Assembly (NCBI GenBank): GCA_030141605.1
Contig: JAQGDQ010002420.1
Location: 1-55,831 of the forward strand
Source: Tubiluchus corallicola
Lineage: Eukaryota; Animalia; Priapulida
Reading direction: 5' to 3'
DNA length: 55,831 bases
Part shown: piece after piece, positions 1-27,397 of the stretch
Position numbering within the stretch: the stretch's first letter is position 1
Layout: each line of letters starts with the position of its first letter
The notes under the pieces: generated by a model
What the model saw: only the letters and a program-made list of their open reading frames with translations
Told to the model about the DNA's origin: nothing
Databases searched by the model: none
Program-made: the position numbers and the translations under genes

Positions 1-1325
1 TGCAGTGTCGCTGTACATATTCAACACCAGCTTGTGTATTTCCGGCCAATTTTCGGTAAAGGCAAATGAAGCATAAGAGTAAAGGTCAAGAGTGTTGTAA
101 TAAGGGTATTCAGGACACTCAAGTATGGCAAAATACTCGAAATTGGTGCCTATCTCATATCCCCAAAATGTGTTGGACGTAAATAGAAACATCTCGTTAA
201 ACAGCGCAGAATGCACCGCATAGTTATCCACCTCTTTCCTACACTCGTCTTGCCAAGTTTCTATCCTTTTCAGCCATAGGTCTTTATTCTTTATCGTCTC
301 AAACAGTATCGATTTTGCGCCTTTAAAGCTCTCCACATACTTCCTGTGGTATCTTCTTCCATGTCCAAACTGAACCACCGGCAGATCCCAGACCAGCACA
401 AAGTTTAGTTTGCGAGTTTCACCCGGTTTTAGAATCACTTTGGAAGCCACAGCCCCACCCGGAATGCTGTTAAATCCATCGGCAAAACCGCAAGACATCT
501 TCCAGTCCTTTGCAGCATCAGGCGATAACACCCCGTCATCCTTAAACATCTCCCAGGCAATATCCCTATCGTAGACATCAAACGTACTGAGGTGCGATGT
601 AGTAACTCCCTCTTCCTTGAGAGCACTTATGGCAAATGTACCCCTGAATGGAGCAGACTTGTCGATCTGATCATTTGACATCAAAAAAACGGTATCTTCA
701 GATGAAGATTTCTCCGCCCTATTGTGGCTATCACAAGATATGGGAGCGTGAGGAGTGCCTCTGTTGTTGTCATCAAAGAAGCCGTTCATATTGGTAAAGC
801 TCAGCATTATGGAACATTCTGCATCCCTTTCCCCCTATTAGTGAGCGAATATTCAAAAACAGCAGTGGGCAAACTGCTCGCCTTATAATCACCCTTTATC
901 ACAGGAGAGTATTGTTTGCATTCAATGAGAACCGGGATACCGTCGAAATATTCATAAGCGGTGTTTGCAACGGGATACAGTGCATTGTATGTGCCCTTAA
1001 CATGATGGACATTATCATACCTTGACATATCAAACTTATCGCAAACATCCGGCTTTTCACTGTTTAGGGCTGATGCAAACTTTTTGTCGCCATATTTTAA
1101 GTTCACACAAAAGGAATTTGCAGGAATAGTAAAAGTTTTCACCAATCCGGGCTTTATGGTATATGAGCTAAAGTGCCCTTTATAGTCCCTATATATAGCT
1201 CCGGTTCCCATGGTACCAAGAGGTACTCCGGACACCACACCTTTGCCGTACAGCCTTTCATATTTTGGCTTTGTTTGTATCTTGTGATTTTCTCCTATCT
1301 TGTAAGAAACGTATGATCTGCTCAC
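1..1325 (-). CDS. GH116 family beta-glycosidase (non-lysosomal glucosylceramidase-like); runs off the left edge; apparent frameshift near 825
   Basis: N-terminal SGVPLGTMGTGAI..G and ALYP..YSPV..DYKASSLP motifs in ORF 807-1364. A shift in the GGGGG-AAA-GGG run continues as ..FVLVWDLP..LFNE..ILECPEYPYYNTLDLYSYAS (GH116 nucleophile region). Probable GTG start at 1325. Confidence 0.85.
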
Positions 1326-1349
1326 CAAAAAGCCCCCGATTTTATAGAT

Positions 1350-1387
1350 AAAAAGAAGCGGCACCGGATATCTGCATCAGGTGCCGC
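1350..1387 (-). terminator. Intrinsic terminator-like hairpin after TRAP dctP
   Basis: GCGGCACC/GGTGCCGC stem (1358-1365 / 1380-1387) followed on the minus strand by TTCTTTTT. Confidence 0.7.
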
Positions 1388-1399
1388 CATGAAACGCAA

Positions 1400-2440
1400 C
1401 TAATCAAGCTCTATGGCATAAGCCTTGTCGAGCTCCTTTTCACATTTGTCTATCACGTTGACAAACTTGTTGTACCAGCCCTGGTTCTCTTTGGACTTGT
1501 TCAAAAACCAATCCGCCATGCCCTTAGAAGCATCGACAAACATCTTCTTCTCTTCAGGACTTGGAGAGTACACAACGCCTCCCTTCTTCCTGAAAGCCTC
1601 ATACGACAGGCTGTCATGATATTTTGGGTAAGCATAGAGATACTGCTGCAACACCTGAAATCCTTCTGCGACGATCCTCTGATATTCTTTAGGCATGCTC
1701 CTGAGCTTCTGTTCGCTCATCATCCAAACTCCACTCATGTATGAGTGTTGATCCAGGATAATATATTTTAGGTGATCGTGAAGGTTCATAACCACGATGT
1801 CTGTTATGCCATTCTTTGTACCTTCTGCAACTCCGGTACCGAGAGATGTATAAACTTCTGGCCATGACACGCCCGTGGGAGTTGCCCCTAACTGTCTGGT
1901 CAACTCTTGCTGGAGAGGTGCGGGTATGGTTCTGATCTTGAGACCTTTCAAGTCTGACGGAGCTTTTACCTGCTTCTTTGTGGTGGCAAAGTTTCTCCAA
2001 CCTCCGGAATTGGTTATGGTCATTATTCGAACATTCGGCAAGCTCGTCTTCATACCAACCCTGAGGTCTTTTACAAAGTCGTGCTGTTCATAAACACATT
2101 CCGCCACATCATCATTTTTGAACATGTAAGGCAGGTCTAAAACCTCAATGGGGCTCCAAAACAGCGCCGCCTCACCGGCTGTGGTTTGAAATATGTCATA
2201 AACACCACTTTGAACCCCTTCCAAACATTCCCTTGCACTGCTGCAAAGCTGAGCGCCGATAAAAGCCTTGACGGTTATATTCCCATTACTGGCGTTCTCA
2301 ACGTAGTTTTTGAAAGCCATCATACCTATGTAGTTGTAATTATCCTTGCCAGTAACGCTGGGCCACACAAGGGTATAGGTCTTGGCATACGCACTCGCAG
2401 AAAACAGAACCGCAAGTAAAACTAATAATATCCTCTTCAT
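1400..2440 (-). CDS. dctP: TRAP substrate-binding protein (DctP family), HpsK-like organosulfonate clade
   Basis: Signal peptide ending ASAYA; DLKGLKIR motif; FKNYVE.ASNG, FIG.QLCS...ECL, GGWRNFA and KNGITDI segments that I recall from roseobacter HpsK. Confidence 0.9.
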   Translation of the reverse strand: MKRILLVLLAVLFSASAYAKTYTLVWPSVTGKDNYNYIGMMAFKNYVENASNGNITVKAFIGAQLCSSARECLEGVQSGVYDIFQTTAGEAALFWSPIEVLDLPYMFKNDDVAECVYEQHDFVKDLRVGMKTSLPNVRIMTITNSGGWRNFATTKKQVKAPSDLKGLKIRTIPAPLQQELTRQLGATPTGVSWPEVYTSLGTGVAEGTKNGITDIVVMNLHDHLKYIILDQHSYMSGVWMMSEQKLRSMPKEYQRIVAEGFQVLQQYLYAYPKYHDSLSYEAFRKKGGVVYSPSPEEKKMFVDASKGMADWFLNKSKENQGWYNKFVNVIDKCEKELDKAYAIELD

Positions 2441-2487
2441 AAATCCTCCTTAACTTATATTAACAAACTTGTCATCCGGCTTTAAAA

Positions 2488-3774
2488 TTATCTAAAAAGC
2501 AAATTTGGCAAAAACAGCACCAGTCCAGGTATAAATGTAATTAAAAATACAACAAATATCTCCACAGCAATGAACGGCAGGATAAATTTTGATATGGTCA
2601 TCACCTTTGAACCGCTAACGGATGATGCCACAAATAGTACTAGCCCCATAGGCGGAGTAGCAAGGCCTATGGTGACATTCACGCACATAACTATAGCAAA
2701 ATGAACTGGGTCAACCCCAAGATCCATCATAATAGGCTGCAAAATCGGTCCAAGTATCAATATTGCAGGGCCCGCATCCAAAAACATCCCTATGAAGAAC
2801 AAAAATATATTCACAAGAAACAGTATGAGATAGGTGTTGGAATTTGCCCCTATTACTTTTTCTGCTATTATGCTCGGCGTTTCAGAGTAGCTCACCACAA
2901 ATGAAAACGCTTGGGCTGCCGCAACGAGCAGCAGTATTGCACTGGCTTGAATCGCAGCTCGTTTAAATATTGGCCCTAAGTCCTTCACGTTTAGGGTACG
3001 TTTCACGATCAAGCCCACCAGGAGCGCATACGCAACAGCAACGGCGGCAGCTTCAGTAGGGGTAAACCAACCGCTCAGTATCCCTCCTAGTAATATCACA
3101 GGTGTCATGAGCGGCCAAAAAGCTATCTGTAAGCTCCTACCTCTCTCTTTCCAGCTGCATTTTTCATTTGCCGGGGCAAAGTTATACTTCTTCGACATAA
3201 AATATGTCACCGTCATCAAAGCCCCGCCCATGAGCAGACCTGGCAAAAGCCCTGCGGCAAACATTTCGCCCAAATTCACATTCATAACGAACGAATATAA
3301 CACCATCAGACCGCTAGGAGGTATGATGGGCCCGATAACGGACGAAGCCGCCGTAACCGCTGCGGCAAAGGATTTTGAATAACCGTTCCTCTCCATGGCG
3401 GGGATAAGCATGGAGCCTATGGCGGAAGTATCCGCAACGGCGGAACCGCTAAGACCTGCAAAAAGGATAGATGAGGCAATATTCACCTGGGCCAAACCAC
3501 CTCGGAAATGCCCTATCATGGATTTGGAAAAATCAACCAATGCCTTTGTCGTGCCTCCGTGGTTCATCACCTCTCCGGCGAGGATGAAGAACGGCAACGC
3601 CATTATGGGAAACGAATTAATACCGCCAAATATTCTACCCATTAGCCCCTTGAGCAGCATCGGCTCCGTGACCTGCAAGTAAATGCCTGAAGCCAAAAGC
3701 ATCCCGAAAAATACCGGTACACTCAAGATTAAAGCGACAATGAATATCCAAAAATATATAGTTGCGATCATCAT
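2488..3774 (-). CDS. dctM: TRAP large permease DctM
   Basis: ALPFFILAG, GLSGSAVAD, GPIIPPS, DPVHF, TPPMG motifs; about 12 hydrophobic segments. Confidence 0.95.
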   Translation of the reverse strand: MMIATIYFWIFIVALILSVPVFFGMLLASGIYLQVTEPMLLKGLMGRIFGGINSFPIMALPFFILAGEVMNHGGTTKALVDFSKSMIGHFRGGLAQVNIASSILFAGLSGSAVADTSAIGSMLIPAMERNGYSKSFAAAVTAASSVIGPIIPPSGLMVLYSFVMNVNLGEMFAAGLLPGLLMGGALMTVTYFMSKKYNFAPANEKCSWKERGRSLQIAFWPLMTPVILLGGILSGWFTPTEAAAVAVAYALLVGLIVKRTLNVKDLGPIFKRAAIQASAILLLVAAAQAFSFVVSYSETPSIIAEKVIGANSNTYLILFLVNIFLFFIGMFLDAGPAILILGPILQPIMMDLGVDPVHFAIVMCVNVTIGLATPPMGLVLFVASSVSGSKVMTISKFILPFIAVEIFVVFLITFIPGLVLFLPNLLFR

Positions 3775-3839
3775 TCCTCCTCAAGAAAAAGTCCGGCCAA
3801 ACAAAACCAGAAAACAACACCTATTGCGCCACAGGAGCG

Positions 3840-4541
3840 TCATATCTTAACATCGCTATGGTCTTCCAACTCTACTTCCGCTTCATGAAAAGACTCTTGG
3901 ATATTCAGCATACGGTGATAATTTTTGCCGTTCATCAACTCCATGATAAACATCAAACCCTTCTGCATTGATGCAACAAGCATCGATGCAATACCTATGG
4001 GTAGAGCAACATATATCCAGATAAGCTTAAAGCCCATGGAGCCGGAAGTTGAGTAAAAGCCGTTCTTGACAAAAATAAGACTGAGATGGAGCATCCCCAT
4101 TAAGACGACCAGCTCAATTATAAACACGAGCCCACTCAAAGCCGCCCTACCCCTCAACGGCAACTTCTCCATGATAATATCTATATTCACCAAAAGGCTA
4201 TGCTTGTAGGCGTAAGGCGCCACGAGAAAACACATCCACACCATCATATAAAGCGCCAATTCTTCTCCCCAGCTAGGGGCTACAAAAAACTTACGCATAA
4301 ACACCTGATAAAATATGGTGGCAGTCATAATGAACAGGGAAGAGATTGCCAAAATAAGGAATATTTTGAACACAAAGTTGGTAATGCGGTCAAGTCCAAA
4401 AAGAATCTTCTCCAGCACAAATTCCGCCCGCTTAGGCACAAGAGCCAACGACACCAGCGACACCGCAGTAAAGAGTATTATGAACAATATAAACACCTTC
4501 CACTCAGCGGATATATCTTTCAGAAAGCCAAACCAAGTCAT
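3840..4541 (-). CDS. dctQ: TRAP small permease DctQ (with an extra N-terminal TM segment)
   Basis: QVFMRKFF..PSWGEEL..Y..VW motif; adjacent to dctM; ATGA overlap with the upstream gene. Confidence 0.9.
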   Translation of the reverse strand: MTWFGFLKDISAEWKVFILFIILFTAVSLVSLALVPKRAEFVLEKILFGLDRITNFVFKIFLILAISSLFIMTATIFYQVFMRKFFVAPSWGEELALYMMVWMCFLVAPYAYKHSLLVNIDIIMEKLPLRGRAALSGLVFIIELVVLMGMLHLSLIFVKNGFYSTSGSMGFKLIWIYVALPIGIASMLVASMQKGLMFIMELMNGKNYHRMLNIQESFHEAEVELEDHSDVKI

Positions 4542-5413
4542 AATACCTCCAACAGGCTTTTTATGTCCGTGACGATAAGGCCGGAGTTTCTCAAAGACTC
4601 AATAAATTTCTCATCAGAAAACATCTCGTACTCCATCCTTCTTAAAAATGCATTATGCGGGGCAATGTGATACATATCCGCACAAGTATCCGGATGTATC
4701 GACAAGAAATGTATTCCCCTGGGCAAGTTCGTATACATTTTGTAGTAAAAATCCCTGACATCCGCACCATCCTCGAGATGACCGGGCGTCATTACAAAGC
4801 TATCGAATTTCAACGGGAGCTTAGATCCATAAATCTTAAACATCTCCTCATAAGCAGAAGCCTCTACTCCCGTGGGGTAGAAGAACTCCGCAAATGAAGC
4901 AGAATCCCGTACAAGCACGGGCAATACCTCGTACTCCTCACAAACACTCATGAACGCTTCCACAACATTCGGGAGCATAGCTGCACCCATGTGCGCATCA
5001 GCGTGACTCAGCCTGATACCATCCGCAAGCGCTCTGTCAAACTGAGCTCTAATCTCCGATTTGGCGTCACTTGGGGTGACATTGTTCAAAACTTGCAGGT
5101 TTTTCGAATGAAGATACCCAGAAGCATCAGTCAGTGACTTGCCATTTGTAAGACCTCTCCATCGATAGCTCTTCCACTCACTTGTAAGGGTTATGTGGAT
5201 ACCCACATCAACTTCAGCATCAAGCCGCCTGTAAAACTCCAAAACTCGGATAATACGGACATACTACCATGACAGATCCACAAGAAACGGTACCCTTTGT
5301 GCTCATAAGCAGGAGAATTCATTTGAACCATGACTCATCCCCAAATCATCCACATGAGGAACCACAACGACAGAACGCTCAAGCATATCTTTAGATACAG
5401 GCACGTCAATCAC
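4538..5413 (-). CDS. ChbG/YdjC-family carbohydrate deacetylase (two apparent frameshifts near 5248 and 5318)
   Basis: HVDDLGMSHGSN at the N-terminus (read by hand from 5413), then GIHITLTSEW, SHADAHM and HP metal-binding motifs; GTGA overlap with the nagB-like stop. Confidence 0.8.
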
Positions 5414-6264
5414 CTCAAAACAGGCTCGGGCATATCGAGTACACCTCTAGTAACGCCAACACTAACATCACAATGTCTCTGTACCAGTGAAGCGGGAAAA
5501 GCCCCGGTAATATCGCCGAATAGCATCCTACGCAATGCAGCACAATGCCAATCTCTGTTCATAAATATTCTGATCTTTTCAGCGCTCAAAATCTCCTTCA
5601 TCCCCACAGTAATGGCAAACTTAGGCATCCTCAAAGTATTGCCCCTTGCAGCAGTAACGGAGTTGATAGTGATGCTCATCTCACGGAGTTGGACAATTCT
5701 AGTCTCGAGCGATGCAAAAAGATCAGGATCCTCATAACCTTCCAAGGGGTCGTTAAAAGCCAAATGTCCCGTTATTCCAACACCTGCATATGTGACGTCC
5801 ACGCCATGTTCTTTGATAATATCAGTATATTCGTTGATATCGTCAGGTTTTGGAAAATAACATTCCGGTCTCCTATGCGTCTCCAGCTTGTTAATGAGAT
5901 GCTCATCGATGTGGCTGCGGAAGCTCAATGGGTCTTCTCTCGGTATCCACTTGCAGGATGGTGTCAAATACTCATCCATACCGAGCAGGATAAGACCGCT
6001 GAGGTCTATATTATCCTTGATCGCCTTTTCAGCCATTATGTCGTACTGCCCAACAGGCCCTACAGGAACTATAAACACAGCCCTTTTCTTCCCTTTGGAC
6101 ATGATAGTTGAGTAATCTTCAAGCATCTTTTCAGCGATGCTATTTATCATCTCTTCATTCTTCTCAAAAACTTCCACGGGGAAGGGGGAGCATCTGACAA
6201 CCTCTTCCCCGGTCATGCCAAGAGCCTTTTCGCTCAGAGAGCTCAACCCATAGTAAAAACTCAT
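5410..6264 (-). CDS. Glucosamine-6-phosphate deaminase (NagB)-like protein, PVGPVGQY variant
   Basis: MDEY catalytic Asp motif, GVGITGHLAFNDP, AITVGMKEIL and FPASL.QRH motifs. Confidence 0.85.
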   Translation of the reverse strand: MSFYYGLSSLSEKALGMTGEEVVRCSPFPVEVFEKNEEMINSIAEKMLEDYSTIMSKGKKRAVFIVPVGPVGQYDIMAEKAIKDNIDLSGLILLGMDEYLTPSCKWIPREDPLSFRSHIDEHLINKLETHRRPECYFPKPDDINEYTDIIKEHGVDVTYAGVGITGHLAFNDPLEGYEDPDLFASLETRIVQLREMSITINSVTAARGNTLRMPKFAITVGMKEILSAEKIRIFMNRDWHCAALRRMLFGDITGAFPASLVQRHCDVSVGVTRGVLDMPEPVLR

Positions 6265-6273
6265 AAATACCCC

Positions 6274-8490
6274 TTACCTGACAAACAGGACGTCACCCTT
6301 CACAAGAACGTCCGCCTTTCCATAAACTTTGTAGGAGACTTTCCCCGTTTTAAAAGCTATTTCCGCATGAGCATCAAAGACGGTCACTTTAATATCTTCA
6401 TCCTCATAGTTTTTATTGGGCACGCCGTAAATGCCGACAAAATCTAAAGTGCCGGTTGAGGCAAACTCTCCGGTATGTTGAACCTTCGGGGCAAACTTTA
6501 TCACCGCCCCATCTGCCACAAATACGGGCGCTCTATCCAGTTCGTACACAGAATCTACGACAACCCCTCCCCTGACAGATTCTCCAGTAAAGAAGTTGTA
6601 GAATGTGCCTTCGGGCAGCATATAGTTCGCACGCCCGCCCTCGGCTATTATCGGAGCACAAAAGATATCGTCCCCGAGCATATATTGGTACTCATAGCTC
6701 CAGAGTTCTTTATTGTTCGGATAAGCTAAAGGCATTGCCCGCACAATGGGGATCCCGTAGGCATTAGCTTGTTTGCCAGCATTCATTATGTATGGAATGA
6801 GGGAGTATCTATAGCCCAACCATTCCCTGGCAATCCTAATCCCTTCGTCGCCAAAGATCCAAGGCTCTCTATCCCCGATACCGTGAAATCTGGTATGGGA
6901 TGCGAGTATTCCGGCCTGCATATAACGCACAAATATCTCTAGGTTTGGCTGCTCTCCATAAAACCCTCCGATGTCGTAGGAATAGTACGCAGCGCCACAA
7001 AGACCCCAAGACAGATTGCCCATAATAGCCCCTCCCAGACCACCAAAGCTTGTCTGAGAGTCTGCCGACCACTGAGCTCCATACTTTTGGGAACCGGTCC
7101 AACCGCTCCTGCCCCACAGGACTGCATTGCCTGCCCCCATCTTTTCTTCTAAAGCTTCGAAGCAAGCTCTGTTATAAATCAGACCCAAGGCATTGTGATA
7201 GTATCTACCGCTGTCGCCATTTAGAGCTATCATGTCAGCTTCCACCTGTTCGCCAAAGTCAGGCTTGAGACAGGAAACACCCATATCGACCATCTTGTGT
7301 ATCTCTTCCTTCCACCACTTTACCATCTCAGGGTTTGTAAAATCATATATGCCGCTCTCGGGCAAAGGAGTCAAAACCTCCCCAAAAGGAGCCATATCCC
7401 ACTCAAACTTCGAAGGTGAACCGTCACTATTTTTTAGCAGAAAATCTTTGTCCGCAAGCTCAGAAAAACGCTCGTGATCAACGGATAAGTTTGGATACAG
7501 CCAGCAGTTGACATGAAAATTCAGGTCTTTCAAGTCTTTAGTAGATTTTTCGGGATCGTCAAACCGTTTTTTGTCCCATTCAAAGATAAATCTAGTGTCA
7601 GTATCCTGCCAAGCCCTGCCGTCGTAAGAGATAACATCTGCAGGCAGTTTTTTATCACGAAAAGTTTTCGCAGCCTCATAAGCGTCATCAGGGGTTGCAT
7701 AATATGCTTTTGATATCCAAGCCCCGTAAGACCAAAGCGGCAATATCGGGGGACGACCCGTAAGCTCAGTATATTTATACAGCATGGAAGCAGGTGTCGC
7801 AGCTCCAAATAGGAACAGGTCAAAAACCTCATCCTCCGTTTCAAGAATGTAAGATATGTGAGACAACGGAGCATATCCTATCGCATGCTTCGTGTCAGCA
7901 GTGGTGTGAAGATATATGCCCCAGCCCTTTGGGCTCCAAGCAAATGGAGTGTTTTTGTAAGTCTCCTCGTGATTGACACCCAAGGAATCTTCGTTTCTGT
8001 TCAGTATCAGCGCGCCGCGATGATTTAGTGCCTCGTGCTTTTCGCCTAAACCGTAAACCTTCTCCCCCAAAGGCAAGTCGAAACTGAACGTAAAACCGTT
8101 TGAAGTCGCAGCAATCGGAGGAAATTTAAACCTTTTGGTAAAGTAACTATCTGAAGAAGGAGAGAGCAGGACAGAACTGCCCATCAGCAGACTAACGCGC
8201 AGAGGAGACTTCTCCAATCGCAAAGTGTAACCTCCAGCTTTGACGTCGTAGCCCTCTTCATTGATGACGACCTCCAAACTCGCACGCTCATACTTCTCTA
8301 TTATCCCGTACTCATTCCTGTTCGCAGAATTGTTTATGGAAAATCTGAAAACACCACAACCATTAGAGGTCACCACAGCAGAACCAGCACTCGTCTGAAA
8401 ACTAAAACAATCATGAAATATCTTGGCGTCAGTAATCTCATCAATAGGAGCAACCTTATCAACATCAACCAAAAGTCTATTCATCTTCAT
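6274..8490 (-). CDS. GH31 alpha-glycosidase (YicI-like)
   Basis: YGLGE, YKNTPF, LTGRP..P.W, KPDFGE nucleophile, WSAD acid/base, DIGGF, RFHG..REPW motifs. Confidence 0.92.
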   Translation of the reverse strand: MKMNRLLVDVDKVAPIDEITDAKIFHDCFSFQTSAGSAVVTSNGCGVFRFSINNSANRNEYGIIEKYERASLEVVINEEGYDVKAGGYTLRLEKSPLRVSLLMGSSVLLSPSSDSYFTKRFKFPPIAATSNGFTFSFDLPLGEKVYGLGEKHEALNHRGALILNRNEDSLGVNHEETYKNTPFAWSPKGWGIYLHTTADTKHAIGYAPLSHISYILETEDEVFDLFLFGAATPASMLYKYTELTGRPPILPLWSYGAWISKAYYATPDDAYEAAKTFRDKKLPADVISYDGRAWQDTDTRFIFEWDKKRFDDPEKSTKDLKDLNFHVNCWLYPNLSVDHERFSELADKDFLLKNSDGSPSKFEWDMAPFGEVLTPLPESGIYDFTNPEMVKWWKEEIHKMVDMGVSCLKPDFGEQVEADMIALNGDSGRYYHNALGLIYNRACFEALEEKMGAGNAVLWGRSGWTGSQKYGAQWSADSQTSFGGLGGAIMGNLSWGLCGAAYYSYDIGGFYGEQPNLEIFVRYMQAGILASHTRFHGIGDREPWIFGDEGIRIAREWLGYRYSLIPYIMNAGKQANAYGIPIVRAMPLAYPNNKELWSYEYQYMLGDDIFCAPIIAEGGRANYMLPEGTFYNFFTGESVRGGVVVDSVYELDRAPVFVADGAVIKFAPKVQHTGEFASTGTLDFVGIYGVPNKNYEDEDIKVTVFDAHAEIAFKTGKVSYKVYGKADVLVKGDVLFVR

Positions 8491-8654
8491 AGCTCATTGC
8501 CTCCAAAAAGCCACAGGGCAGAATATAAAAAAACCACCATACGCGCGATATTACGAAAAATCGCACAAAACACCACACCCGACCGAGCGGTAATAAAATA
8601 CGCAAAAACACACATCGACAAGCACCACTCAAAGCTTGCACGTCAAATTAAAGT

Positions 8655-8737
8655 CTTCCTCCCCCGCAAGCGAAAAATGCCTATTTTTTTATGTTGATGC
8701 ACCATTCTGGAATGCCTTCCTCCCCCGCAAGCGAAAA
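8655..8737. repeat. 22-nt exact direct repeat, two copies, 39-nt spacer
   Basis: CTTCCTCCCCCGCAAGCGAAAA at 8655-8676 and 8716-8737. Confidence 0.9.
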
Positions 8738-8852
8738 CGACCACTCTTAGCCACCATCCCCATGCAAAACAGATGCTCCCTCACACACAAGCAAAAAATA
8801 ACAAACAACTATATATAATAACCAATTCAGAACATTTTTATAATAACAAATA

Positions 8853-8881
8853 CTTATAGTTCATAAATGTAATATTGTCAA
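8853..8881 (-). promoter_or_regulatory. sigma70 promoter for the GH31-nagB-chbG-TRAP-GH116 operon
   Basis: Minus strand TTGACA (8881-8876), 17 nt, TATAAG (8858-8853). Confidence 0.65.
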
Positions 8882-8987
8882 CATATTTCTACCATATTTG
8901 TTGTTTTTCTAACAAAGGCAAGGTTTGGGCTCAAATCTTCTATCAAGGTTTGGCGTAGGAAATTAAATACATCGCATTCGGCTTTAA

Positions 8988-9767
8988 TTATCTGATCTGT
9001 CTGGAACCGTTCTTCGTGGCAACTATGAGTTTTACACCACTGCCTATCATTTTATCCAACAGCCGCTTTGGGGGTTCTTTATCCGTGATTACGGTATCCA
9101 TATCTTCTATATTTGCCAACGCAACGTTGGCTTTTGTGTTGTACATTTCACTCTTCAACAACAGGAGTTTGTGCCTTGACATACTCATCATCTTTTGTGC
9201 CACATCCACTTCACCTCTATTGTAGTCTAGTATTATGCCATCTTCACCGATAGCACCTCCGGAAAAAACCACATAGTCCGCCACAAAAGAACCTACATAC
9301 CTGATAGCTTCATACCCCGTTATGCCGGAATTGGATGTATTAACCCTGCCAGGGACCACCGTGATCCCAACATTCTCCTTCATAGATAACATGCTTGCCA
9401 CATTCAGACTGTTGGTAACAACCTCGTAGCACTTATCGACCCTTGACGCAAAAGCCTCAACAGTGGTGCCTATAGTGACAAAGATCATAGAGTGTTCCGG
9501 GATGCAGTTTAGTGCGGCCTCTGCAATCCATTGCTTCTCCATGGCTTGCAATGCATATCTTGTCTGAAAATTGACATTCTTGACACTAGACAGCGCCAAC
9601 ACCCCGCCATGATACTTCGTCACAAGATTTTGGTTCACCATCTCCGCAATATCTCGCCTGATGGTCTGAGCACTCACCTTAAACTCTTCCGAAAGCCACT
9701 CCACACCGCAATAACCGTGCTTCTGTACTATTTCAAGTATTTCTTTATGTCTAGCATTCTTGTACAT
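8988..9767 (-). CDS. csqR: DeoR/GlpR-family regulator, CsqR (YihW)-like
   Basis: HTH VSAQTIRRDI; SSVKNVNF, IFVTIGTTVE, NSGITG, ADY..SGGAI resemble E. coli YihW as I recall it; divergent from yihU. Confidence 0.75.
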   Translation of the reverse strand: MYKNARHKEILEIVQKHGYCGVEWLSEEFKVSAQTIRRDIAEMVNQNLVTKYHGGVLALSSVKNVNFQTRYALQAMEKQWIAEAALNCIPEHSMIFVTIGTTVEAFASRVDKCYEVVTNSLNVASMLSMKENVGITVVPGRVNTSNSGITGYEAIRYVGSFVADYVVFSGGAIGEDGIILDYNRGEVDVAQKMMSMSRHKLLLLKSEMYNTKANVALANIEDMDTVITDKEPPKRLLDKMIGSGVKLIVATKNGSRQIR

Positions 9768-9832
9768 ATCCTAAATACTATACCTATTCCTTTCGCAAAT
9801 ATCAACAATTTACAACAAAAATAATCATAAAC

Positions 9833-9861
9833 TTGACATAAAATGTAATATTATGTACAAA
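9833..9861 (+). promoter_or_regulatory. Candidate sigma70 promoter of the yihU operon, overlapping a repeated motif
   Basis: TTGACA 9833-9838, 17 nt, TACAAA (imperfect -10); contains AAATGTAATATT, also present at 8865-8876. Confidence 0.5.
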
Positions 9862-10036
9862 GATAGCATGTTGTGAATTATATTTTTACAATGGCAGCGA
9901 TAATTTGCTCCGTGTAATCCACAGAAATACCGGAAGCAGTGCCATCTGAGTTGTCTATGCACAAGGCTGCATAGCTACTGTGAGCATTTTTTCTCACTCG
10001 TATGCTCGCTGCTAGAAATATCTAGGAGGATATTGT

Positions 10037-10927
10037 ATGAAGACAGGTTTTGTAGGTCTTGGAATAATGGGTTATCCCATGGTTATGAACCTTATTAATG
10101 GCGGTATTGATGTAAAAGTGTTTGATATAGATAAGGAAAAATTAAATAGCATTGTAAAAAATGGTGGAAAAGAGGCAAAAAGCCCGAAAGATGCCGCCAG
10201 CGATGTGGATATTGTAATCACTATGTTGCCAAATGGAGCCATCGTCAGGGATGCGGTGTTTGGTTCTGACGGCATTGCTAAAGGGTTGAAGCCTGACACT
10301 CTTTTTATCGACATGTCAACTGTTCACCCTTTGGAATCGGATGCTTTGCGCAAGGATCTAAATGCACTGGGCTTTCAGATGATGGACGCACCTGTGGGCA
10401 GAACTTCTGAACACGCAATTCAGGGAACTCTCTTAATACTTGCGGGGGGCACATCAGAACAGATAAAGAAAGCACAGCCCCTGTTTGACCTCATGGGGAG
10501 CGATACCGTCAACATGGGCGGAGAAGGAAAAGGGATAAGGATAAAGATCATCAACAATCTGATGAGCATCGCCCTAAACGGCTTATCTGCGGAAGTAATG
10601 GCGCTGTCTGAAAAGCTCGGATTGAAGTTTGACGATGTTATGTCCGTTTTTTCTGGAACTCCTGCGGGGAAAGGACACTTTACTACCACATGGCCCCAGA
10701 GGGTATTGAAGGATGATTTATCGCCTCTGTTTATGTTGGGGCTTGCACACAAAGACCTTGGGATTGCAATAGATGTTGGAGCAAAGCTGAATGTACCGCT
10801 ACCCATGTCAGCTTCTGCTCTCCAGGCGTACTCTACTGCCATGGCAAACGGCAGAGGGACTGAAGATTGGAGCGCAATGTTTGAAGATGCTAAAGTGAAT
10901 TGTGGATTAAAGCCCAAAAAGGGTTGA
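10037..10927 (+). CDS. yihU: 3-sulfolactaldehyde reductase (beta-hydroxyacid dehydrogenase family)
   Basis: GLGIMG Rossmann motif; DAPVGRTS carrying the Gly-Arg-Thr sulfonate pocket; KIINNLMSIALN; GKGHFTTTWP..VL..DLSP.FM..LAHKDLGIA closely matching recalled E. coli YihU; AGGAGG RBS. Confidence 0.9.
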   Translation: MKTGFVGLGIMGYPMVMNLINGGIDVKVFDIDKEKLNSIVKNGGKEAKSPKDAASDVDIVITMLPNGAIVRDAVFGSDGIAKGLKPDTLFIDMSTVHPLESDALRKDLNALGFQMMDAPVGRTSEHAIQGTLLILAGGTSEQIKKAQPLFDLMGSDTVNMGGEGKGIRIKIINNLMSIALNGLSAEVMALSEKLGLKFDDVMSVFSGTPAGKGHFTTTWPQRVLKDDLSPLFMLGLAHKDLGIAIDVGAKLNVPLPMSASALQAYSTAMANGRGTEDWSAMFEDAKVNCGLKPKKG

Positions 10928-10961
10928 CGTATTTTAATGGCAAGATCTACGGAGTTGCAAG

Positions 10962-12032
10962 ATGGGAAATTCGATAAAGGTGCACAAACGCAAAGATTGT
11001 GAAGACATTCATGAGATAAATCTTTTCTTACAGGGGATCGATATTTCTGTGCTCAACTACGGTTGCACGCTCAACAAACTACTTACCCTTGACCGGAACG
11101 GACACTTTGGGGATATTGTGCTGGGTTTTGACGATCCTTATCGGTATACGGAAGCTCACCCTTTTTTCGGATCTATAGCTGGCAGATTTGCAAACAGGAT
11201 TAAGAACGGAACATTCTATCTCGAAGGCAAGAAATACACCTTAGCTACAAACGAAATATCGACAGGAAGTCACCTCCATGGAGGTGTCAGGGGATTCGAT
11301 AAATATCGTTGGGATTACGATGTTTCGAGCGGCAAAGACTGTGAAGAGGTAATTTTCTACAGGCAGTCTGAAGACGGTGAGGAAGGCTACCCCGGGAAAC
11401 TACTTATAACCCACACAATAAGAATAACATCGAGCAATGAATTATTCTTCATATTTGAGGCGGAAGCCGAAGAGACCACCATATGCAACTTGGTCAATCA
11501 TAGCTATTACAATCTATCCGGTGGGTCTTCCGGCAACGTATTCAACCACAACATAGAGGTGTACGGAGATAATTATCAAAGAGTGGATTCCTCTTGCATT
11601 CCCAACGGAGAACTCGGATTTACCAAAGATATATTCAAAAATAGCGGCAATATTGGCGAAGCCATCGCTACCCATTATGACCCAAGCTTGGGTGTCCCTG
11701 GGGCTATAGACTACAACTTTATCTTAAACTCGGAAAGCGAGCACGGCTTAAGAAGAGCTGCACTGGTATCTGAGCCCTCTTCAGGAAGAATAATGGAAGT
11801 CAGCACAAACTTGGAGGGTGTACAGATTTATAACGGTTTTAAACTCGGGATAAAGAGGTGGATCGGAAAAGGCGGCACCACATATTCTTCATTTGGTGGC
11901 TTGTGCCTTGAAACGCAGCATTTTCCAAACTGTATCAATACCGAAGATGATGCACACCAATGCATCATAGACAAGGGCGAAAGGGCGAAGTATATCACCA
12001 GACACAAGTTTCTTTGCGATATTGGTGCTTAA
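10962..12032 (+). CDS. galM: Aldose 1-epimerase (mutarotase), likely sulfoquinovose mutarotase by context
   Basis: GRFANRI, HLHGG, GEEGYPG, NLVNHSYYNL, GLCLETQHFPN. Confidence 0.88.
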   Translation: MGNSIKVHKRKDCEDIHEINLFLQGIDISVLNYGCTLNKLLTLDRNGHFGDIVLGFDDPYRYTEAHPFFGSIAGRFANRIKNGTFYLEGKKYTLATNEISTGSHLHGGVRGFDKYRWDYDVSSGKDCEEVIFYRQSEDGEEGYPGKLLITHTIRITSSNELFFIFEAEAEETTICNLVNHSYYNLSGGSSGNVFNHNIEVYGDNYQRVDSSCIPNGELGFTKDIFKNSGNIGEAIATHYDPSLGVPGAIDYNFILNSESEHGLRRAALVSEPSSGRIMEVSTNLEGVQIYNGFKLGIKRWIGKGGTTYSSFGGLCLETQHFPNCINTEDDAHQCIIDKGERAKYITRHKFLCDIGA

Positions 12033-12072
12033 AGGATGCTTTGGCCAACTTTTTTAATGAGAGGCGTAGTCA

Positions 12073-12856
12073 ATGTTAGATGAAATATCCATTTTGACTG
12101 TATTTGCATTGTGCATAATTATAATGTTTGGTGGATTTGTTCAAGGTCTTACGGGCTTTGGATTGGCTTTGGTGAGTGTCCCCCTACTGTCTTTAGTTGT
12201 GGATGCCAAGATGGCGATCCCCCTGGCGGGCATATACGGTTGGCTTGTTACACTACCTATTGTTTACAAGATGAGGGGGTCGGTCGTATACCCTATCGGC
12301 ATTGCTATGTTTGTCTGTTCTATTCCCGGAGCATGGTTGGGGGTTGATCTGCTTATCATACTGCCGGAATGGGCAATTTTAGCCGCTATGGGCTCAGTGC
12401 TGATATTTGTCAGCCTATATTCTATACTCAAACACGGCACCAGCGGCGTTACGTTCAAAAACAGAATGTCAGAATACGGTTTTGGCGGCGCAGCCGGTTT
12501 CTTAGGGGGCGTGCTCGGAAGTGCTGTTGGAGAACCGGGACCACCCGTAATCGCTTATACATCTTTTCAGAAATGGACTGGAGATCAGATAAAGTCCACC
12601 TTGGCATTTTACTTCATGCTGCAGATGATGATAACTTTGAGCGCATATTACTATAAAGGGATATTCACAAGTGAAGTCACTTGTGGGTCGTGCCGCATAC
12701 ATGATGCCGACATTTATCATAGGCGCATGCGCAGGCATGTGGAGCTACGCGCATATGAAGAAAAACAACATCAATTTTCATAAAATAGTCCACATTTTAC
12801 TAATATTTATAAGCATAGGCATACTTTTTAAATCATACTCAAAGTTTGCGGCTTAA
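12073..12856 (+). CDS. TauE/SafE (TSUP) exporter, probable sulfonate (DHPS) exporter; frameshift near 12678
   Basis: GFVQGLTGFG..L..VP and G..GPP repeats; ORF 12073-12783 joins hydrophobic ORF 12671-12856. Confidence 0.82.
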
Positions 12857-12881
12857 TTTTTTTTAAAGGGAGAAATTGACC

Positions 12882-13836
12882 ATGGATAAGCTTAGTGCAT
12901 TAAAACAACACACAGTAGTAGTCGCAGATACCGGCGACTTTGAATTAATAGCAAAATACAGCCCAGAAGACGGAACAACAAACCCTACATTGATCTACAA
13001 CGCTTCGCAATTGCCCCAATATGCTCACCTTGTGGAGAAAGCTGTCAGCATAGGAAAGAAGAGCTCCCTTTCGGGAGAAAAGCTCCTGGACTACGTCAAT
13101 GACAGGCTTGCAATACTTTTTGGTCTTGAGATATTGAATATCGTGCCGGGAAGGGTCTCAACAGAAGTTGATGCCACCCTGTCTTTCAATAGAGACGGCA
13201 CCATTGACAAGGCAAAGCAGATTATAGACCTATACAAAGAGGCAGGCGTGGATAAAGAAAGGGTGTTGATAAAGATAGCAGCCACATGGGAAGGTATAAA
13301 AGCTGCTGAACAGTTGCAGAAGGAAGGCATAGACTGCAATCTCACATTGATTTTTCACAAAATACAAGCTGTCGCGTGCGCTCAAGCTGGCGCATATCTC
13401 ATATCCCCCTTCGTAAATAGGGTTCTCAATTATTTTGAAAACTTGGGGCAGACGTTTGATGATCCCGCAAAACACCCCGGCGTGGTCTATGTGAAGGAGA
13501 TACACAACTACTATAAGAAGTTTGATCACAAAACCATAGTCATGGCAGCCTCTTTGAGGAAAGTTACAGAAGTGTCAGAGCTTGCCGGTCTTGACAGGAT
13601 GACCATACCTGTTCCTTGGAAGAGCTGCAGAATACTGAAGGCAATATGGACAGGTCATTGAGTGTTGCAGCGGCAAGGCGTCGGATGAAGAGAAGATTGA
13701 CGCTAATGAAAATAGATTCCGCTGGGATATAAATTCATGTCCTATGACATGCGACAAGCTAAGTGATGGTATAAGACTATTTGCCAAGGATTTAAGCGCT
13801 CTAAAGGGCTTCATGGCAAAGAAACTCGAGATGTAG
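12882..13836 (+). CDS. tal: Transaldolase, TalA/TalB type (two apparent frameshifts near 13613 and 13675)
   Basis: VVADTGD, TTNP, STEVD, LIKIAATWEG (Schiff-base Lys), CNLTL, ISPFV, MAASLR; shifted C-terminus FRWDIN..M.CDKLSDGIRLFAKD ending at TAG 13834-13836. Confidence 0.9.
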
Positions 13837-13850
13837 GGGTTGATATAGAG

Positions 13851-15187
13851 ATGAATAAACCAAGAATTGTGTTGTTTGCCTTAGGCAGACCTTTATTTGA
13901 TGTTGAATTTGCGGAAGCACAGGTTCGCAAAGCGTTGGAAAATTTGCAAAACTTACCCATCGAGATCGTCCAAAAAGAGGGAATTTTATTTGACGAAGCA
14001 GAAGTCGATATCGCCATCAACGAGATGGAGGACAGAGACAACATCGATGCAGTCCTCATATTGCAAGCGACATTTTCGGATGCCAGCATAACGAAGAAGA
14101 TAGCGAGCATGATCGATGCTCCGATAATACTCTGGTCATTCCCGGAACCAAGACTTGAGGACGATTGAAGACCAACAGTTTTTGCGGCGTAAATCTGGCC
14201 TGTCACGTGCTGAGCAGAGAAGGAAAAAAATACTTCTTTGTCCACGGAGATGGCAGTGACAGCTCCATACCACCGGAAATTAATGGAATAGTCAGAGGGT
14301 CTTATTCCGTCAAAAAGGTAAAAGGCGGAAAGATTTTAGCTGTGGGCGATTTTCCTGGAGGGTTTGACAGTTGTGACTATAGCGCCGAAGAGCTGGCAGA
14401 AATATTTAATATCGAGATAGTCCCCAGGGATATTGGGGGATTTTTGTCCGACGTTGCGAAGGTGCCGAATGATGACGCGAGTAGGTTTTTTAATAAAATC
14501 AAGCCCATGTACGAAAACTTGGAAGAGCACGATTTTGAAACAACTCTAAAAACTTTGAAGGTATATCTTCATACAAAGCAGATGGTGGAAAGGGAAGGTT
14601 TTTTGGGTATTGCCATGAGGTGTTGGCCGGAATTCTTCACAGAATTTGGGGCGTCAGCCTGTGGAGCTTATTCATTTTTGGGGGAAGATCTCATTCCAGC
14701 AGGTTGTGAAAGGGATGTTTTTGGAGTTCTTACGAGTCTGACCTTGCAAAATATAGGAAATGACAAGGTATTTAATACAGACATCGTGGAGGTCTCATAC
14801 ACTGACGATTCTGCAGTCTTGTGGCACTGCGGCCAAGCTCCCATATCCATGGCAAAAGAGGATAAGATAAGGGCAACACTTCACAGCAACAGGAAAAAAC
14901 CACTACTAAACGAATTCACCCTAAAGCCGGGCTACATCACCATAGCAAGGCTAAGCAGAGGAAATAACAGGTTGAAAATGATCTTAACGGGAGGCGAGAT
15001 ACTTGACCGCCCATTGCCATTCTCTGGGACCTCTGGAGTTGTGAGATTTGATAAACCGTGCAAGACGACGATAGAGTTTCTCCTGAATGAGGGGTTAGAA
15101 CATCACGTGTCGATAGTGTATGGAGATCACAAAAATGGTGTGAAAACATTTGCAAAGCTGATGGACATAGATTTGCTGGAGATATAG
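13851..15187 (+). CDS. L-fucose/L-arabinose isomerase-family protein, SqvD/SftI-like sulfoquinovose isomerase candidate; frameshift near 14158
   Basis: QATFSDA..WSFPEPR(G)GRLKTNSFCGVNL across the junction; RCWPEFF, CERD, WHCG, EHH motifs. Confidence 0.78.
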
Positions 15188-19693: not shown

Positions 19694-19721
19694 TTGACTA
19701 AATATTTTAATGCTATATAGT
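19694..19721 (+). promoter_or_regulatory. Candidate sigma70 promoter of the HU-OmpA gene
   Basis: TTGACT, 16 nt, TATAGT. Confidence 0.45.
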
Positions 19722-19776
19722 GGTATTCTTCGGGGTGTGGTTTTGCCCGGCAAAATTTTTTATGTTAAGAGGTTTT

Positions 19777-20784
19777 ATGAACAAATCTCAATTAATCGAG
19801 AGGTTATCGGAAGATACCGAGCTCACGGGAGAGCAGGTTAGCGAATTTTTAACGGCTCTGCAGGATACGATTGTGGAAACCGTCCACGATGGAGATATCG
19901 TTAAGATAAGCTCTTTTGGCACATTTGCTCCTCACAAGCTTCCGTCGAGGGTGATAAGGAGCATACAAGATGCTTCTCTGATTGTTACACCTGAAAAAGA
20001 CACGGTAAAGTTTAAGCCTGGTTCAAAGCTCAAGGAGCCATTTGCGGTTAAAGCTGTGCCTGTCAAGAGAAAGCATGTTCAGATGCCTGAAGCGTCTGAG
20101 ACGGTTGAGACGGTTCCTGCTAAAGAGAAATCGAAGAAGCCGCAGCTGATCATCGCTGTTGTTTTAGTCTTGGCCATAGGATTATTCGCTCTTAACCAAT
20201 ACATGCGGGACAAAAGCACAGGCGAGGACGCGATGGTCGTACCGGAGCCCGAAGTTGTGGTGGCAAGCGTTGAAGAAGTACCTCCGCCGATTGTGGAAGA
20301 AGTGCCGCCGGTCGTGGAGGAAACACCACCGGAACCGCCAATTGTGGAAGAAGTGCCGCCGGTCGAAGTTGAAGAGGAAATTAATATCATCGATCAGCTT
20401 TTCCTCGTGCATAATGAGCATGTCCAATCTTACATAGAGGATGATGTCTACATTATGTTGGTGTTTTTCAAGCCCTACGGCGTTGCGCTCACTTCTGACA
20501 TGAAGAGTTCTATGCAGCCAGTGATGCAGCAGATATTTGAGCATAGTGAACACATAGACAGGATAATAGTGGAAGGGCACGCGGATGCTTCCGGAGATAA
20601 AGATGAAAATATTATGCTTTCGAGCCTCCGAGCAGAGAATGCGTACTACTACATTGAGCAGTACAGTCCTCAAATTGAATTTTTCATTGAGAATAAAGGG
20701 ACTGTCGCCCCCATGGGTTCAAACGATACGACTGAGGGAAGATCTCTGAATAGAAGGGCCCAAGTGATGATATTTTTCAAGTAG
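19777..20784 (+). CDS. HU/IHF domain - TM helix - Pro/Glu/Val-rich linker - OmpA-like peptidoglycan-binding domain fusion
   Basis: MNKSQLIERLS..V.ISSFGTF..VKFKPGSKLKE (HU); LIIAVVLVLAIGLFAL (TM); VEGHAD..G....N..LS..RA and N.T.EGR.LNRR (OmpA-C). Confidence 0.85.
   Translation: MNKSQLIERLSEDTELTGEQVSEFLTALQDTIVETVHDGDIVKISSFGTFAPHKLPSRVIRSIQDASLIVTPEKDTVKFKPGSKLKEPFAVKAVPVKRKHVQMPEASETVETVPAKEKSKKPQLIIAVVLVLAIGLFALNQYMRDKSTGEDAMVVPEPEVVVASVEEVPPPIVEEVPPVVEETPPEPPIVEEVPPVEVEEEINIIDQLFLVHNEHVQSYIEDDVYIMLVFFKPYGVALTSDMKSSMQPVMQQIFEHSEHIDRIIVEGHADASGDKDENIMLSSLRAENAYYYIEQYSPQIEFFIENKGTVAPMGSNDTTEGRSLNRRAQVMIFFK
20290..20365 (+). repeat. Intragenic 25-nt direct repeat encoding IVEEVPPV
   Basis: ATTGTGGAAGAAGTGCCGCCGGTCG at 20290-20314 and 20341-20365. 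Confidence 0.9.
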
Positions 20785-24336: not shown

Positions 24337-25083
24337 TCAATTAAAATGGTTTAAAATATCATTGAGATAGATAACTCCATCAAAACCATCTATCTCTCCG
24401 CTGATGATACTTCCCTTCTCGCCCGACTCAGCTCCTAAGCAAGTGACCACTATATCAGCTTGCCCCAAATCTTCATCCACGGTGTATGGATTCACGGTAG
24501 CCAAGACATTTGTCCCAGCTCTTTTTGCAGCGGTTACGCCTATGTGCGAATCCTCCACAACTAAGCATTCAGAAGCTTCAATCCCCACCCTGTCGAGACC
24601 GGTTTGATATATTTCAGGGTCAGGTTTCTTTTTGTTTACCATATCTCCTGCAAGGATAAAGTCAAACTTTATATCGGATAAAAACTTCTCGGAGATTAGG
24701 CTAGCGACCCTTTCGTTAGAAGTGGTACAGATACCGATATGCAACCCCTTATTCTGTATCTCCTTCATAAACCTGAGCACACCTGGGCGCAAAGGCAACT
24801 CGCCACCCTCTAGCATCTCCAAAAATATGTCAGTTTTCCTCTTGTGCAACTTAGGCACCAGAGTATCCACACTCTCCGGAAGCTTCACATTATTGGTCTC
24901 AAAAAAATGTTTCATCCGCTCCTTTCCACCACCAACCTGCAACAACTTGTGGTACCCATCAACACTCCATGACGCATCTATGCCAAACTCCTCGAAGACT
25001 TTGTTAAAAGCAACCCGATGTCCATCCTTTTCAGTGTCTATGATTACTCCATCTTGATCAAAAAATACCGCCTTAATAGCCAT
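24337..25083 (-). CDS. HAD-superfamily sugar phosphatase, CbbY-like
   Basis: FFDQDGVIIDTEKDGHRVAFN, GGGKERM, KKPDPEIY, VVEDS; RBS before ATG 25083. Confidence 0.88.
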   Translation of the reverse strand: MAIKAVFFDQDGVIIDTEKDGHRVAFNKVFEEFGIDASWSVDGYHKLLQVGGGKERMKHFFETNNVKLPESVDTLVPKLHKRKTDIFLEMLEGGELPLRPGVLRFMKEIQNKGLHIGICTTSNERVASLISEKFLSDIKFDFILAGDMVNKKKPDPEIYQTGLDRVGIEASECLVVEDSHIGVTAAKRAGTNVLATVNPYTVDEDLGQADIVVTCLGAESGEKGSIISGEIDGFDGVIYLNDILNHFN

Positions 25084-25144
25084 TGTCCCCTCCTCATCTA
25101 TCTTAACAAAAGGATAGTCGTATTGCATCAGAGTATCACAGGGT

Positions 25145-26014
25145 CTATGCCTTGCCAGCACAACCCAAAAGATCAATAAACCTCTCAATGCTCTGCACTA
25201 TCTTCCCTCTTACATACTTATCAATCTTTCCCGGATTATATTCATCCCTATGTCCGTCTATGTACTCATAAGTTGCATCGATCAGGACTCTCTTCAGCTC
25301 TGTTGAAACATTAAACTTTGCTCCACCTGCAGACACCAACCTCTTAACGACATCATCGCTTAGCCCCGTTCCCCCATGTATGACAAGAGCTGATCTGTAG
25401 GCGTCGCCATTCACTATTTGTGCAATCTTTTCAAACCTGTCAAAATCCACATTGGGTTCTCCCTTGTAAACTCCATGCGCTGTGCCGATAGCGGGAGCAA
25501 AAAGATCTACCCCGGTCTTTGAAACAAACTCAAGCGCCTCATCAGGATCACACAATCTCGCCTCGTCTTCGTCGACGACGAGTTCATCCTCAACACCCAA
25601 GACCCTGCCTAATTCGCCTTCAACGGTAATGTCACCCTTATCTCTGCAATAATCTACAACACCCTTTGTAATCTCGATATTTTTATCAAGCTCATTATGG
25701 GATGCATCGATCATGATATTTGTATATCCTGCATCGGCACAACGGATGCATAAGTCCACATCCTCACAGTGATCAAGATGCAGGCAAACAGGGATATCTA
25801 CCCCTCTTGCTATGGCCTTATAAGCGGACGCAATGACCTCAGGGCCGATAAACTTCACGGGGGAGACGGATGTCTGTATAATGACGGGAGATCGCTTGTT
25901 ATGCGCAGCCTCCACAACAGCTTCCATCTGCAAAATGTTCGTAATGTTGAATGCCCCGACAGCATAGCCACCTAGGCTAGCCTTTCTTAACATCTCTCTT
26001 GCGTTCTCTATCAT
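25145..26014 (-). CDS. Class II (metal-dependent) ketose-phosphate aldolase
   Basis: AVGAFN, HLDH, MIDAS, VEGELG, GTAHG, IHGGTG, KFNVST. Confidence 0.92.
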   Translation of the reverse strand: MIENAREMLRKASLGGYAVGAFNITNILQMEAVVEAAHNKRSPVIIQTSVSPVKFIGPEVIASAYKAIARGVDIPVCLHLDHCEDVDLCIRCADAGYTNIMIDASHNELDKNIEITKGVVDYCRDKGDITVEGELGRVLGVEDELVVDEDEARLCDPDEALEFVSKTGVDLFAPAIGTAHGVYKGEPNVDFDRFEKIAQIVNGDAYRSALVIHGGTGLSDDVVKRLVSAGGAKFNVSTELKRVLIDATYEYIDGHRDEYNPGKIDKYVRGKIVQSIERFIDLLGCAGKA

Positions 26015-26038
26015 TACAGAAGACCTCCTGATTACAAT

Positions 26039-27358: not shown

Positions 27359-27397
27359 ACAAAAATCCCCCAGCGTCTTTACATGCAAATGTAGTAA

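Follow-up and report, generated by a model that had tools for sequence, protein, structure and literature searches.

The left end of contig JAQGDQ010002420.1 of the Tubiluchus corallicola assembly GCA_030141605.1 carries a locus for the use of sulfoquinovose (SQ), in which a transaldolase gene of the TalB class occupies the slot that a class II aldolase fills in related clusters. The window, i.e. the whole stretch of DNA analysed, comprises 55,831 nucleotides (nt), and the locus covers its positions 1 to 15,187. SQ, a sulfur sugar plentiful in the membranes of plants and algae, belongs to the most abundant organosulfur compounds; 2,3-dihydroxypropane-1-sulfonate (DHPS) made from SQ feeds sulfide producers. 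The regulator gene on the minus strand is divergent from yihU on the plus strand. To the right, yihU, the mutarotase gene, tauE, the transaldolase gene (talB) and the isomerase gene (sqvD) are separated by 34, 40, 25 and 14 nt, the last two gaps being those on either side of talB. To the left of the regulator follow genes for a glycoside hydrolase of family 31 (GH31), NagB-like and YdjC-like proteins, a tripartite ATP-independent periplasmic (TRAP) transporter (DctQMP) and a GH116 glycosidase that crosses the window edge.

1..1364, minus: GH116 glycosidase, two open reading frames (807-1364 and 1-807), truncated at the left edge (Pfam PF12215/PF04685)
1400..2440, minus: TRAP substrate-binding protein DctP, predicted SQ or SQ-glycerol binder (PF03480)
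2488..3774, minus: TRAP large permease DctM (TIGR00786 above cut-off; 46-63% identity to DctM of SqvD loci)
3840..4541, minus: TRAP small permease DctQ (PF04290)
4538..5400 (5' end approximate), minus: YdjC-like carbohydrate deacetylase (PF04794; frameshifts are assembly errors, run X1 contig indels at 5240-5313)
5410..6264, minus: NagB-like deaminase/isomerase (weak TIGR00502 match; alignments)
6274..8490, minus: predicted GH31 sulfoquinovosidase of the SqgH clade, not the YihQ clade (motifs, binding-residue spacing)
8885..8906, minus: possible CsqR-type operator 5' of the sqgH operon, weak (rank 5 in the window, 22-nt matrix)
8988..9767, minus: DeoR-family regulator, CsqR-like (PF00455 and PF08220)
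9810..9831, plus: possible CsqR-type operator 5' of yihU, weak (rank 3 in the window, 22-nt matrix)
10037..10927, plus: predicted sulfolactaldehyde reductase YihU (NF012005, 397 bits, cut-off 348)
10962..12032, plus: aldose 1-epimerase, predicted SQ mutarotase (PF01263; 38-45% identity to mutarotases of SqvD loci)
12073..12856, plus: TauE-type exporter, predicted DHPS exporter, 259 aa read through (PF01925; 47-54% identity to TauE of SqvD loci)
12882..13836, plus: TalB-class transaldolase, candidate sulfofructose transaldolase, 319 aa read through (E. coli TalB match)
13851..15187, plus: SqvD/SftI-like SQ isomerase of the fucose-isomerase family, 445 aa read through (NF048012, 48 and 211 bits)

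Scans of open reading frames (ORFs) with Pfam and NCBIfam profiles find every gene named by an earlier sequence-only reading in the place where it had been put. Its gene identities stand; the class of the transaldolase (TalB, not SqvA/SftT) does not, and frameshifts in tauE, the transaldolase gene and the isomerase gene have to be added. Sixteen ORFs were scanned first and then 39 of the 67 stop-to-stop frames to the right of 15.2 kb, the remainder of which mostly overlap those genes; the RNase J, FabH and FabG ORFs were profile-scanned separately. Among the window ORFs scanned, family profiles detect no PfkB or PfkA kinase, no YihT-type aldolase and no transketolase, and tblastn with locus-derived references agrees. 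These scans bear out the earlier statement that the window lacks a kinase for sulfofructose (SF), an SF-phosphate aldolase and a transketolase. Within the window, SqvD-type isomerase, transaldolase and sulfolactaldehyde reductase are clustered with no kinase or aldolase in the locus, the left edge of which is open.

In the assembly tauE, talB, the isomerase gene, ydjC and mutS are all frameshifted. Short-read contigs of run X1, and for the isomerase gene and mutS also of run X2, carry indels which restore the frames. The breaks, which are assembly errors, lie at 12681-12690 in tauE, at 13615 and 13669 in talB and at 14156 in the isomerase gene (X1 and X2). Across talB the short-read contig shows zero base substitutions. 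X1 and X2 stem from one sample, perhaps the source sample; they correct the assembly and are not independent occurrences. We reject a reading of these genes as pseudogenes, given the frames restored by the short-read contigs and the error of the same kind in mutS. The break in the GH116 gene remains in this comparison, and the X1 contig extends approximately 1 kb past the left edge.

The enzymes flanking the proposed cleavage step have clear family assignments. YihU scores 397 bits with NF012005 and 212 bits as GarR type; it reaches 354 bits to PDB 6sm7 as compared to 165 for the next match, and the alignment to 6sm7 shows the GRT motif and the N/S residues of the pocket described for YihU (PMC8006165). 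The earlier assignment of the reductase to YihU therefore holds, its activity being predicted. The isomerase reaches approximately 259 bits with NF048012, summed over two pieces. This is below the equivalog cut-off of 700, as are clear SQ-cluster isomerases (269-322 bits), and its motifs are conserved across 23 relatives. YihU, SqvD and TauE are full length with conserved motifs. The window gives no tblastn match with SftX (SqvB, DUF4867) of Propionivibrio soli; a GalM-type mutarotase is present.

The transaldolase belongs to the large TalB class, with 319 aa, whereas SqvA/SftT has the small TalC/FSA-class subunit of approximately 220 aa. Its match to E. coli TalB reaches 276 bits, that to the SF transaldolase BmSF-TAL 48 bits. 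A structural model covering 244 of the 319 residues (predicted local distance difference test 96) gives a TM-score of 0.97 to TalB. In a quick tree it joins TalB, on a long terminal branch without near relatives, and is split from SqvA at an SH-like approximate likelihood ratio (SH-aLRT) of 100. The SqvA-type transaldolase assumed by the sequence-only reading is contradicted by this class and by the lack of the SqvA signature. Catalytic residues D16, N34, E95, K131 and F177, as aligned with E. coli TalB, are kept, so a working transaldolase is expected and not an aldolase; aldolase activity in TalB requires the exchange F178Y (PMC3962226).

The anion site of this enzyme has changed more than the rest. 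Of 128 family-conserved columns 21 are altered, most of them close to the anion site: residues 176-245 account for 14 changes in 37 columns, the other residues for 7 in 91 (Fisher p approximately 1e-4, for a region picked post hoc). Among 145 homologues, chosen as nearest matches, the median number of changed conserved columns is 0 and the maximum 8. Directly next to the anion-binding Arg, Gly is replaced by Asn (G179N), an exchange found in 0 of the 144 homologues that have this motif. Relatives sharing Asn-Arg were sought among 34 scored candidates; 27 passed, and the 19 inspected all keep Gly-Arg. An Asn in front of this Arg presumably resembles E. coli FSA (fructose-6-phosphate aldolase).

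Conserved gene order gives the transaldolase its context. A YihU ortholog occurs in 5 of 132 Pseudovibrio-family genomes, and all five loci hold regulator and kinase on one side and yihU, mutarotase, tauE and class II aldolase on the other, with sqvD next in three. The window shows this order without the kinase, and talB sits in the slot of the class II aldolase. A YihU ortholog is also present in 14 of 80 SqvD-anchored genome loci, each of which (14/14) keeps a cleavage module in the cluster: kinase plus aldolase in 12, SqvA in 2. YihU searches of 401 alphaproteobacterial and 400 scored gammaproteobacterial genomes yielded three new matches, none with SQ neighbours or TalB. Dihydroxyacetone kinase genes follow one Pseudovibrio SQ cassette (L011, 16521-18220).

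Directly observed for this SQ locus are the identities and order of its genes, their intact frames, the class of the enzyme and its residues; the activities that follow are all predicted, and SF cleavage is the weak step. TRAP would import SQ or SQ-glycerol, and SqgH would free SQ. Mutarotase and SqvD would convert SQ to SF. The transaldolase would transfer the C1-C3 unit of SF to glyceraldehyde-3-phosphate (GAP), giving fructose-6-phosphate (F6P) and sulfolactaldehyde, which YihU would reduce to DHPS, recycling NADH; TauE would export DHPS. As in the earlier proposal, a transaldolase route to F6P and DHPS is the simplest reading of the locus. We put at roughly 0.55 the probability that the TalB-class enzyme, as the only carbon-carbon-cleaving gene product of the locus, is an independently recruited SF transaldolase yielding F6P and excreted DHPS. 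Historically, a Pseudovibrio-type cassette (csqR and kinase opposite yihU, mutarotase, tauE, class II aldolase and sqvD) may have lost its kinase, with talB replacing the aldolase in place.

Several observations weigh against SF cleavage by this enzyme, and most of them would fit an ordinary sugar-phosphate transaldolase which rebalances F6P, GAP and sedoheptulose-7-phosphate while SF is cleaved by kinase plus aldolase, SqvA or transketolase encoded past the left edge or elsewhere in the genome. Genes past the left window edge are unseen and the left operon is open there, continuing for approximately 1 kb on the X1 contig. The SqvA signature (TTNP[RK], SPF[VI]GW, AAxR), found in BmSF-TAL and in 29/29 transaldolases detected in loci L001-L160, all of the small class, is absent; at its positions the window enzyme has R180, S224, R226 and T36. 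For the sulfonate-orienting WAR motif of SqvA, W138 is a given position and those of Ala and Arg were inferred from the alignment. The canonical Arg-Ser-Arg phosphate site is retained, its Ser and second Arg being what we take to be S226 and R228 in TalB numbering. The anion-binding Arg of TalB is R181 (PMC3962226), and the exchange W138R has been taken as casting doubt on SF activity (PMC11659671). The same source also reports an SQ cluster in which a second gene of the transaldolase family is not an SF enzyme. An unrelated fragment, P0247, has six of the odd residues of the transaldolase, so part of its divergence may be lineage drift. None of four cleavage-enzyme references is found in 27 of the 80 SqvD-anchored loci, some of which lie on short contigs. 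E. coli has TalA and TalB. Even so, its yihV and yihT mutants show no growth on SQ (PMC6278857), and an ordinary TalB is therefore insufficient.

On the other side, we infer that the retained Arg is not disqualifying, because the same pocket must bind the phosphate of GAP. The in-cluster cleavage modules of all YihU and SqvD loci speak against cleavage at a distance, since talB fills exactly that slot. A TalB-class gene is found nowhere in L001-L160 (best match 35% over 107 aa), which leaves the window as a single case and equally provides no example of such a gene as an accessory. The window does hold a class II aldolase (25145-26014), 10 kb off in a separate operon with an FGGY kinase, but at 31-37% identity to SQ-cluster aldolases, compared with 69-94% among the YihU-linked ones, it is unlikely to be the missing SF-phosphate aldolase. 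Taken together, a merely accessory role of the transaldolase appears unlikely, though it deserves serious consideration. Less probable still is a relic cassette, in which a housekeeping talB moved in after the loss of kinase and aldolase and only the front end is used, e.g. for glycerol from SQ-glycerol. A short yih cassette of E. coli Nissle is unresponsive to SQ (PMC12608037) and could serve as precedent, and the cassette is known here from one genome only; yet the breaks in tauE, talB, isomerase gene and ydjC are assembly errors, and YihU, SqvD and TauE, whose roles are confined to the steps around SF cleavage, are intact. Very improbable, finally, is an FSA-like aldolase cleaving SF without acceptor to dihydroxyacetone and sulfolactaldehyde. 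The FSA-like Asn before the anion-binding Arg and the kinase genes downstream of one Pseudovibrio cassette would suit it, but E95 and F177 are those of a transaldolase, F178Y being needed for aldolase activity (PMC3962226), and the window ORF scans reveal no dihydroxyacetone kinase gene.

The left operon belongs to the SQ locus. Its GH31 shares motifs with SqgH of Alteromonas macleodii, an assayed sulfoquinovosidase (PMC12780224), and its R300, T374, K409 and F510 match the spacing of R302, T377, K412 and F513; for R and T the match was made on the printed AmSqgH sequence, for K and F only on the spacing. It lacks the W and Y of the Q/E-R-W-Y motif of YihQ (GH31_13) and is 24-30% identical to YihQ. 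From these sequence features we predict a sulfoquinovosidase of the SqgH clade. SqgH members given in the supplement of PMC12780224 are confined to 10 marine Gammaproteobacteria, which have the dioxygenase (sulfo-SDO) route. Of the 80 SqvD-anchored loci, 14 have the SqgH-type GH31, 14 have YihQ, 7 have an SqgA-like gene and 45 have none of these, with two together in no locus. Conversely, 21 of 80 metagenome loci anchored on the window-type GH31 have an SqvD-like gene. SqgH-type genes stand beside SqvD, in EMP- and TAL-type (Embden-Meyerhof-Parnas and transaldolase) clusters, in Alphaproteobacteria, Desulfobacterota, SAR324 and Chloroflexota, never alongside YihQ.

Loci behind this observation: L001, L005, L007, L012, L014, L015, L025, L028, L048, L053, L062, L071, L073, L076; L081-L160

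The DctP at 1400-2440 has 38-51% identity to DctPs beside SqvD or SqgH as compared to 23-28% to the other DctPs of the window. The regulator is 31-39% identical to DeoR-type regulators of SQ loci, its best match among the loci being that of a Pseudovibrio cassette. Family and position fit CsqR, a DeoR protein released by SQ; the effector is a prediction. An operator matrix of 22 nt, derived from six other genomes, puts sites 5' of yihU and sqgH at ranks 3 and 5 in the window, whereas one of 18 nt finds neither; as the sites appear with one of two matrix widths, this operator evidence is weak. A promoter scan stayed at chance level and an Rfam scan gave zero matches. In the long leader 5' of sqgH lie three 27-nt direct repeats with 60-61 nt spacing (8650-8797).

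The SQ uptake operon includes YdjC-like and NagB-like genes (4538-6264); in alignments, a PVGP loop takes the place of the usual phosphate-binding loop in the NagB-like protein. We considered entry of an amino-sulfosugar through these two proteins, since NagB-like genes occur in 5/80 and YdjC-like genes in 3/80 SqvD-anchored loci. The idea is unsupported: both are found in 0/80 SqgH-anchored loci. Seventeen NagB-like-anchored regions, excluding the G001 match (identical to L064) as the search centre, contain one partial SqvD-like match and no SqgH, YihQ, SqvA or SqiA. A literature search for such an entry route found nothing.

The host is probably a deep-branching member of the Deferribacterota, judged by one marker, RNase J. 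Its best match among 1.84 billion representatives has 43% identity and lies in a cluster which includes Deferribacterales. Of its top nine clusters, two further ones are Mucispirillum and Deferribacteraceae, one is Dysosmobacter and several have other names or none. The claim that this lineage was not known as sulfoglycolytic agrees with our literature search, which found nothing tying SQ catabolism to Deferribacterota, the supplementary genome tables of 2026 surveys and a fish skin microbiome preprint that mentions both lying outside that search; the combination of sulfo-TAL parts had already been described.

Other loci and the remainder of the window offer observations of their own. SqvD, class II aldolase and TRAP genes occur together in metagenome-assembled genomes (MAGs) of Desulfobacterota/delta type (L002, L014, L015, also L003, L007, L012, L018, L022); a PfkB gene was confirmed for L002, L014 and L015, the latter two also containing an aldehyde dehydrogenase. 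Such MAGs with SqvD are possible SQ-degrading sulfate reducers. Chloroflexota loci L031, L064 and L078 combine SqvD-like and YdjC genes with no recognised cleavage enzyme within 10 kb; L064 and L078 add NagB-like, GH4 and Gfo/Idh genes, GH4 being a candidate glycosidase. These SqvD-like genes may act on another sugar. In the window, positions 19720-20784 encode a fusion of an HU-like DNA-binding domain, a membrane segment, a Pro/Glu-rich linker and an OmpA-like domain. The operon at 24337-29320 (DapA-like protein, 2-hydroxyacid dehydrogenase, FGGY kinase, class II aldolase, HAD phosphatase) would encode another sugar pathway. Positions 29576-34531 and 41197-49320 hold two further TRAP systems together with genes for an IclR regulator, a pentulose kinase and another DapA-like protein; this rich sugar-acid uptake set also includes a 551-aa gene without Pfam or NCBIfam match. 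At 49602-50818 lies a pair of paralogous ORFs of lipoprotein-like character, both with carboxypeptidase-regulatory-like domains; their signal regions are almost the same.

The SQ locus is real, with SqgH-type sulfoquinovosidase, TRAP, CsqR-like regulator, YihU, mutarotase, TauE and SqvD-like isomerase; its interest rests on one enzyme from one genome, the SF activity of which is predicted. The class of this transaldolase is the real novelty and also the weakest link. A literature search for an SF transaldolase of TalB class found none. The chances are about even that SF transaldolase activity arose twice, a TalB-class enzyme having entered an EMP2-type cassette in place of kinase and aldolase, with the anion site reshaped without the SqvA Trp motif, and that a member of the Deferribacterota has a sulfo-TAL route invisible to SqvA-based surveys. 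Since surveys score sulfo-TAL by similarity to SqvA/SftT, they would miss such an enzyme and call the genome incomplete. If true, a one-gene swap would link EMP-type and TAL-type routes, and there would be a second structural answer to binding sulfonate and phosphate in one pocket. Regardless of the role of the transaldolase, SQ genes are extended to a probable member of the Deferribacterota and SqgH is placed in sulfoglycolytic clusters.

Compared with known systems, the transaldolase shares fold (TM 0.97), approximately 52% identity, catalytic and phosphate-site residues with E. coli transaldolase B, and differs in the altered conserved columns (21/128) and in its location inside an SQ operon. 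The GH31 has the motifs and binding-residue spacing of Alteromonas macleodii SqgH, which stands in a sulfo-SDO context there and in a sulfoglycolytic cluster here. Mixed EMP/EMP2 clusters with SqvD have been published for Yersiniaceae (PMC9594981). These hybrid cassettes and those of Pseudovibrio (L011, L016, L205-L207) show the same order as the window, regulator facing yihU, mutarotase, tauE, cleavage enzyme and sqvD, and hold the best matches for its YihU (61%) and regulator (39%); the window differs by the lack of a PfkB kinase and by TalB in place of class II aldolase. The sequence-only reading had seen a gene set matching no described pathway. This goes too far: YihU and TauE already belong to sulfo-TAL, and the betaproteobacterial loci L024 (Rhodocyclaceae) and L027 (Propionivibrio soli), which are complete sulfo-TAL clusters, likewise combine a CsqR-like DeoR regulator, YihU, TauE, SqvD and transaldolase, although with true SqvA (295 bits to BmSF-TAL), SftX and YihQ-type GH31. 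The hybrid character is thus less than claimed and the framing mostly not new. The reviews consulted name only Firmicutes, Thermotogae and Chloroflexi as sulfo-TAL lineages, and one of 2026 defines the route by SqvD, SqvA and SlaB or YihU (PMC12890257); SftR is a YihU homologue, and TauE lies within the original sulfofructose transaldolase (SFT) cluster (PMC7491151). With the sulfo-TAL/SFT systems of Priestia aryabhattai SOS1, P. megaterium DSM 1804 and Agathobacter rectalis (SftI/SqvD, SftT/SqvA, SftR, SftE, SftX) the window shares the isomerase family, a YihU-homologous reductase, TauE and a transaldolase with no kinase or aldolase. It departs from them by a large TalB-class enzyme without WAR, a GalM-type mutarotase for SqvB/SftX (DUF4867), SqgH for YihQ, TRAP uptake and a DeoR-type regulator.

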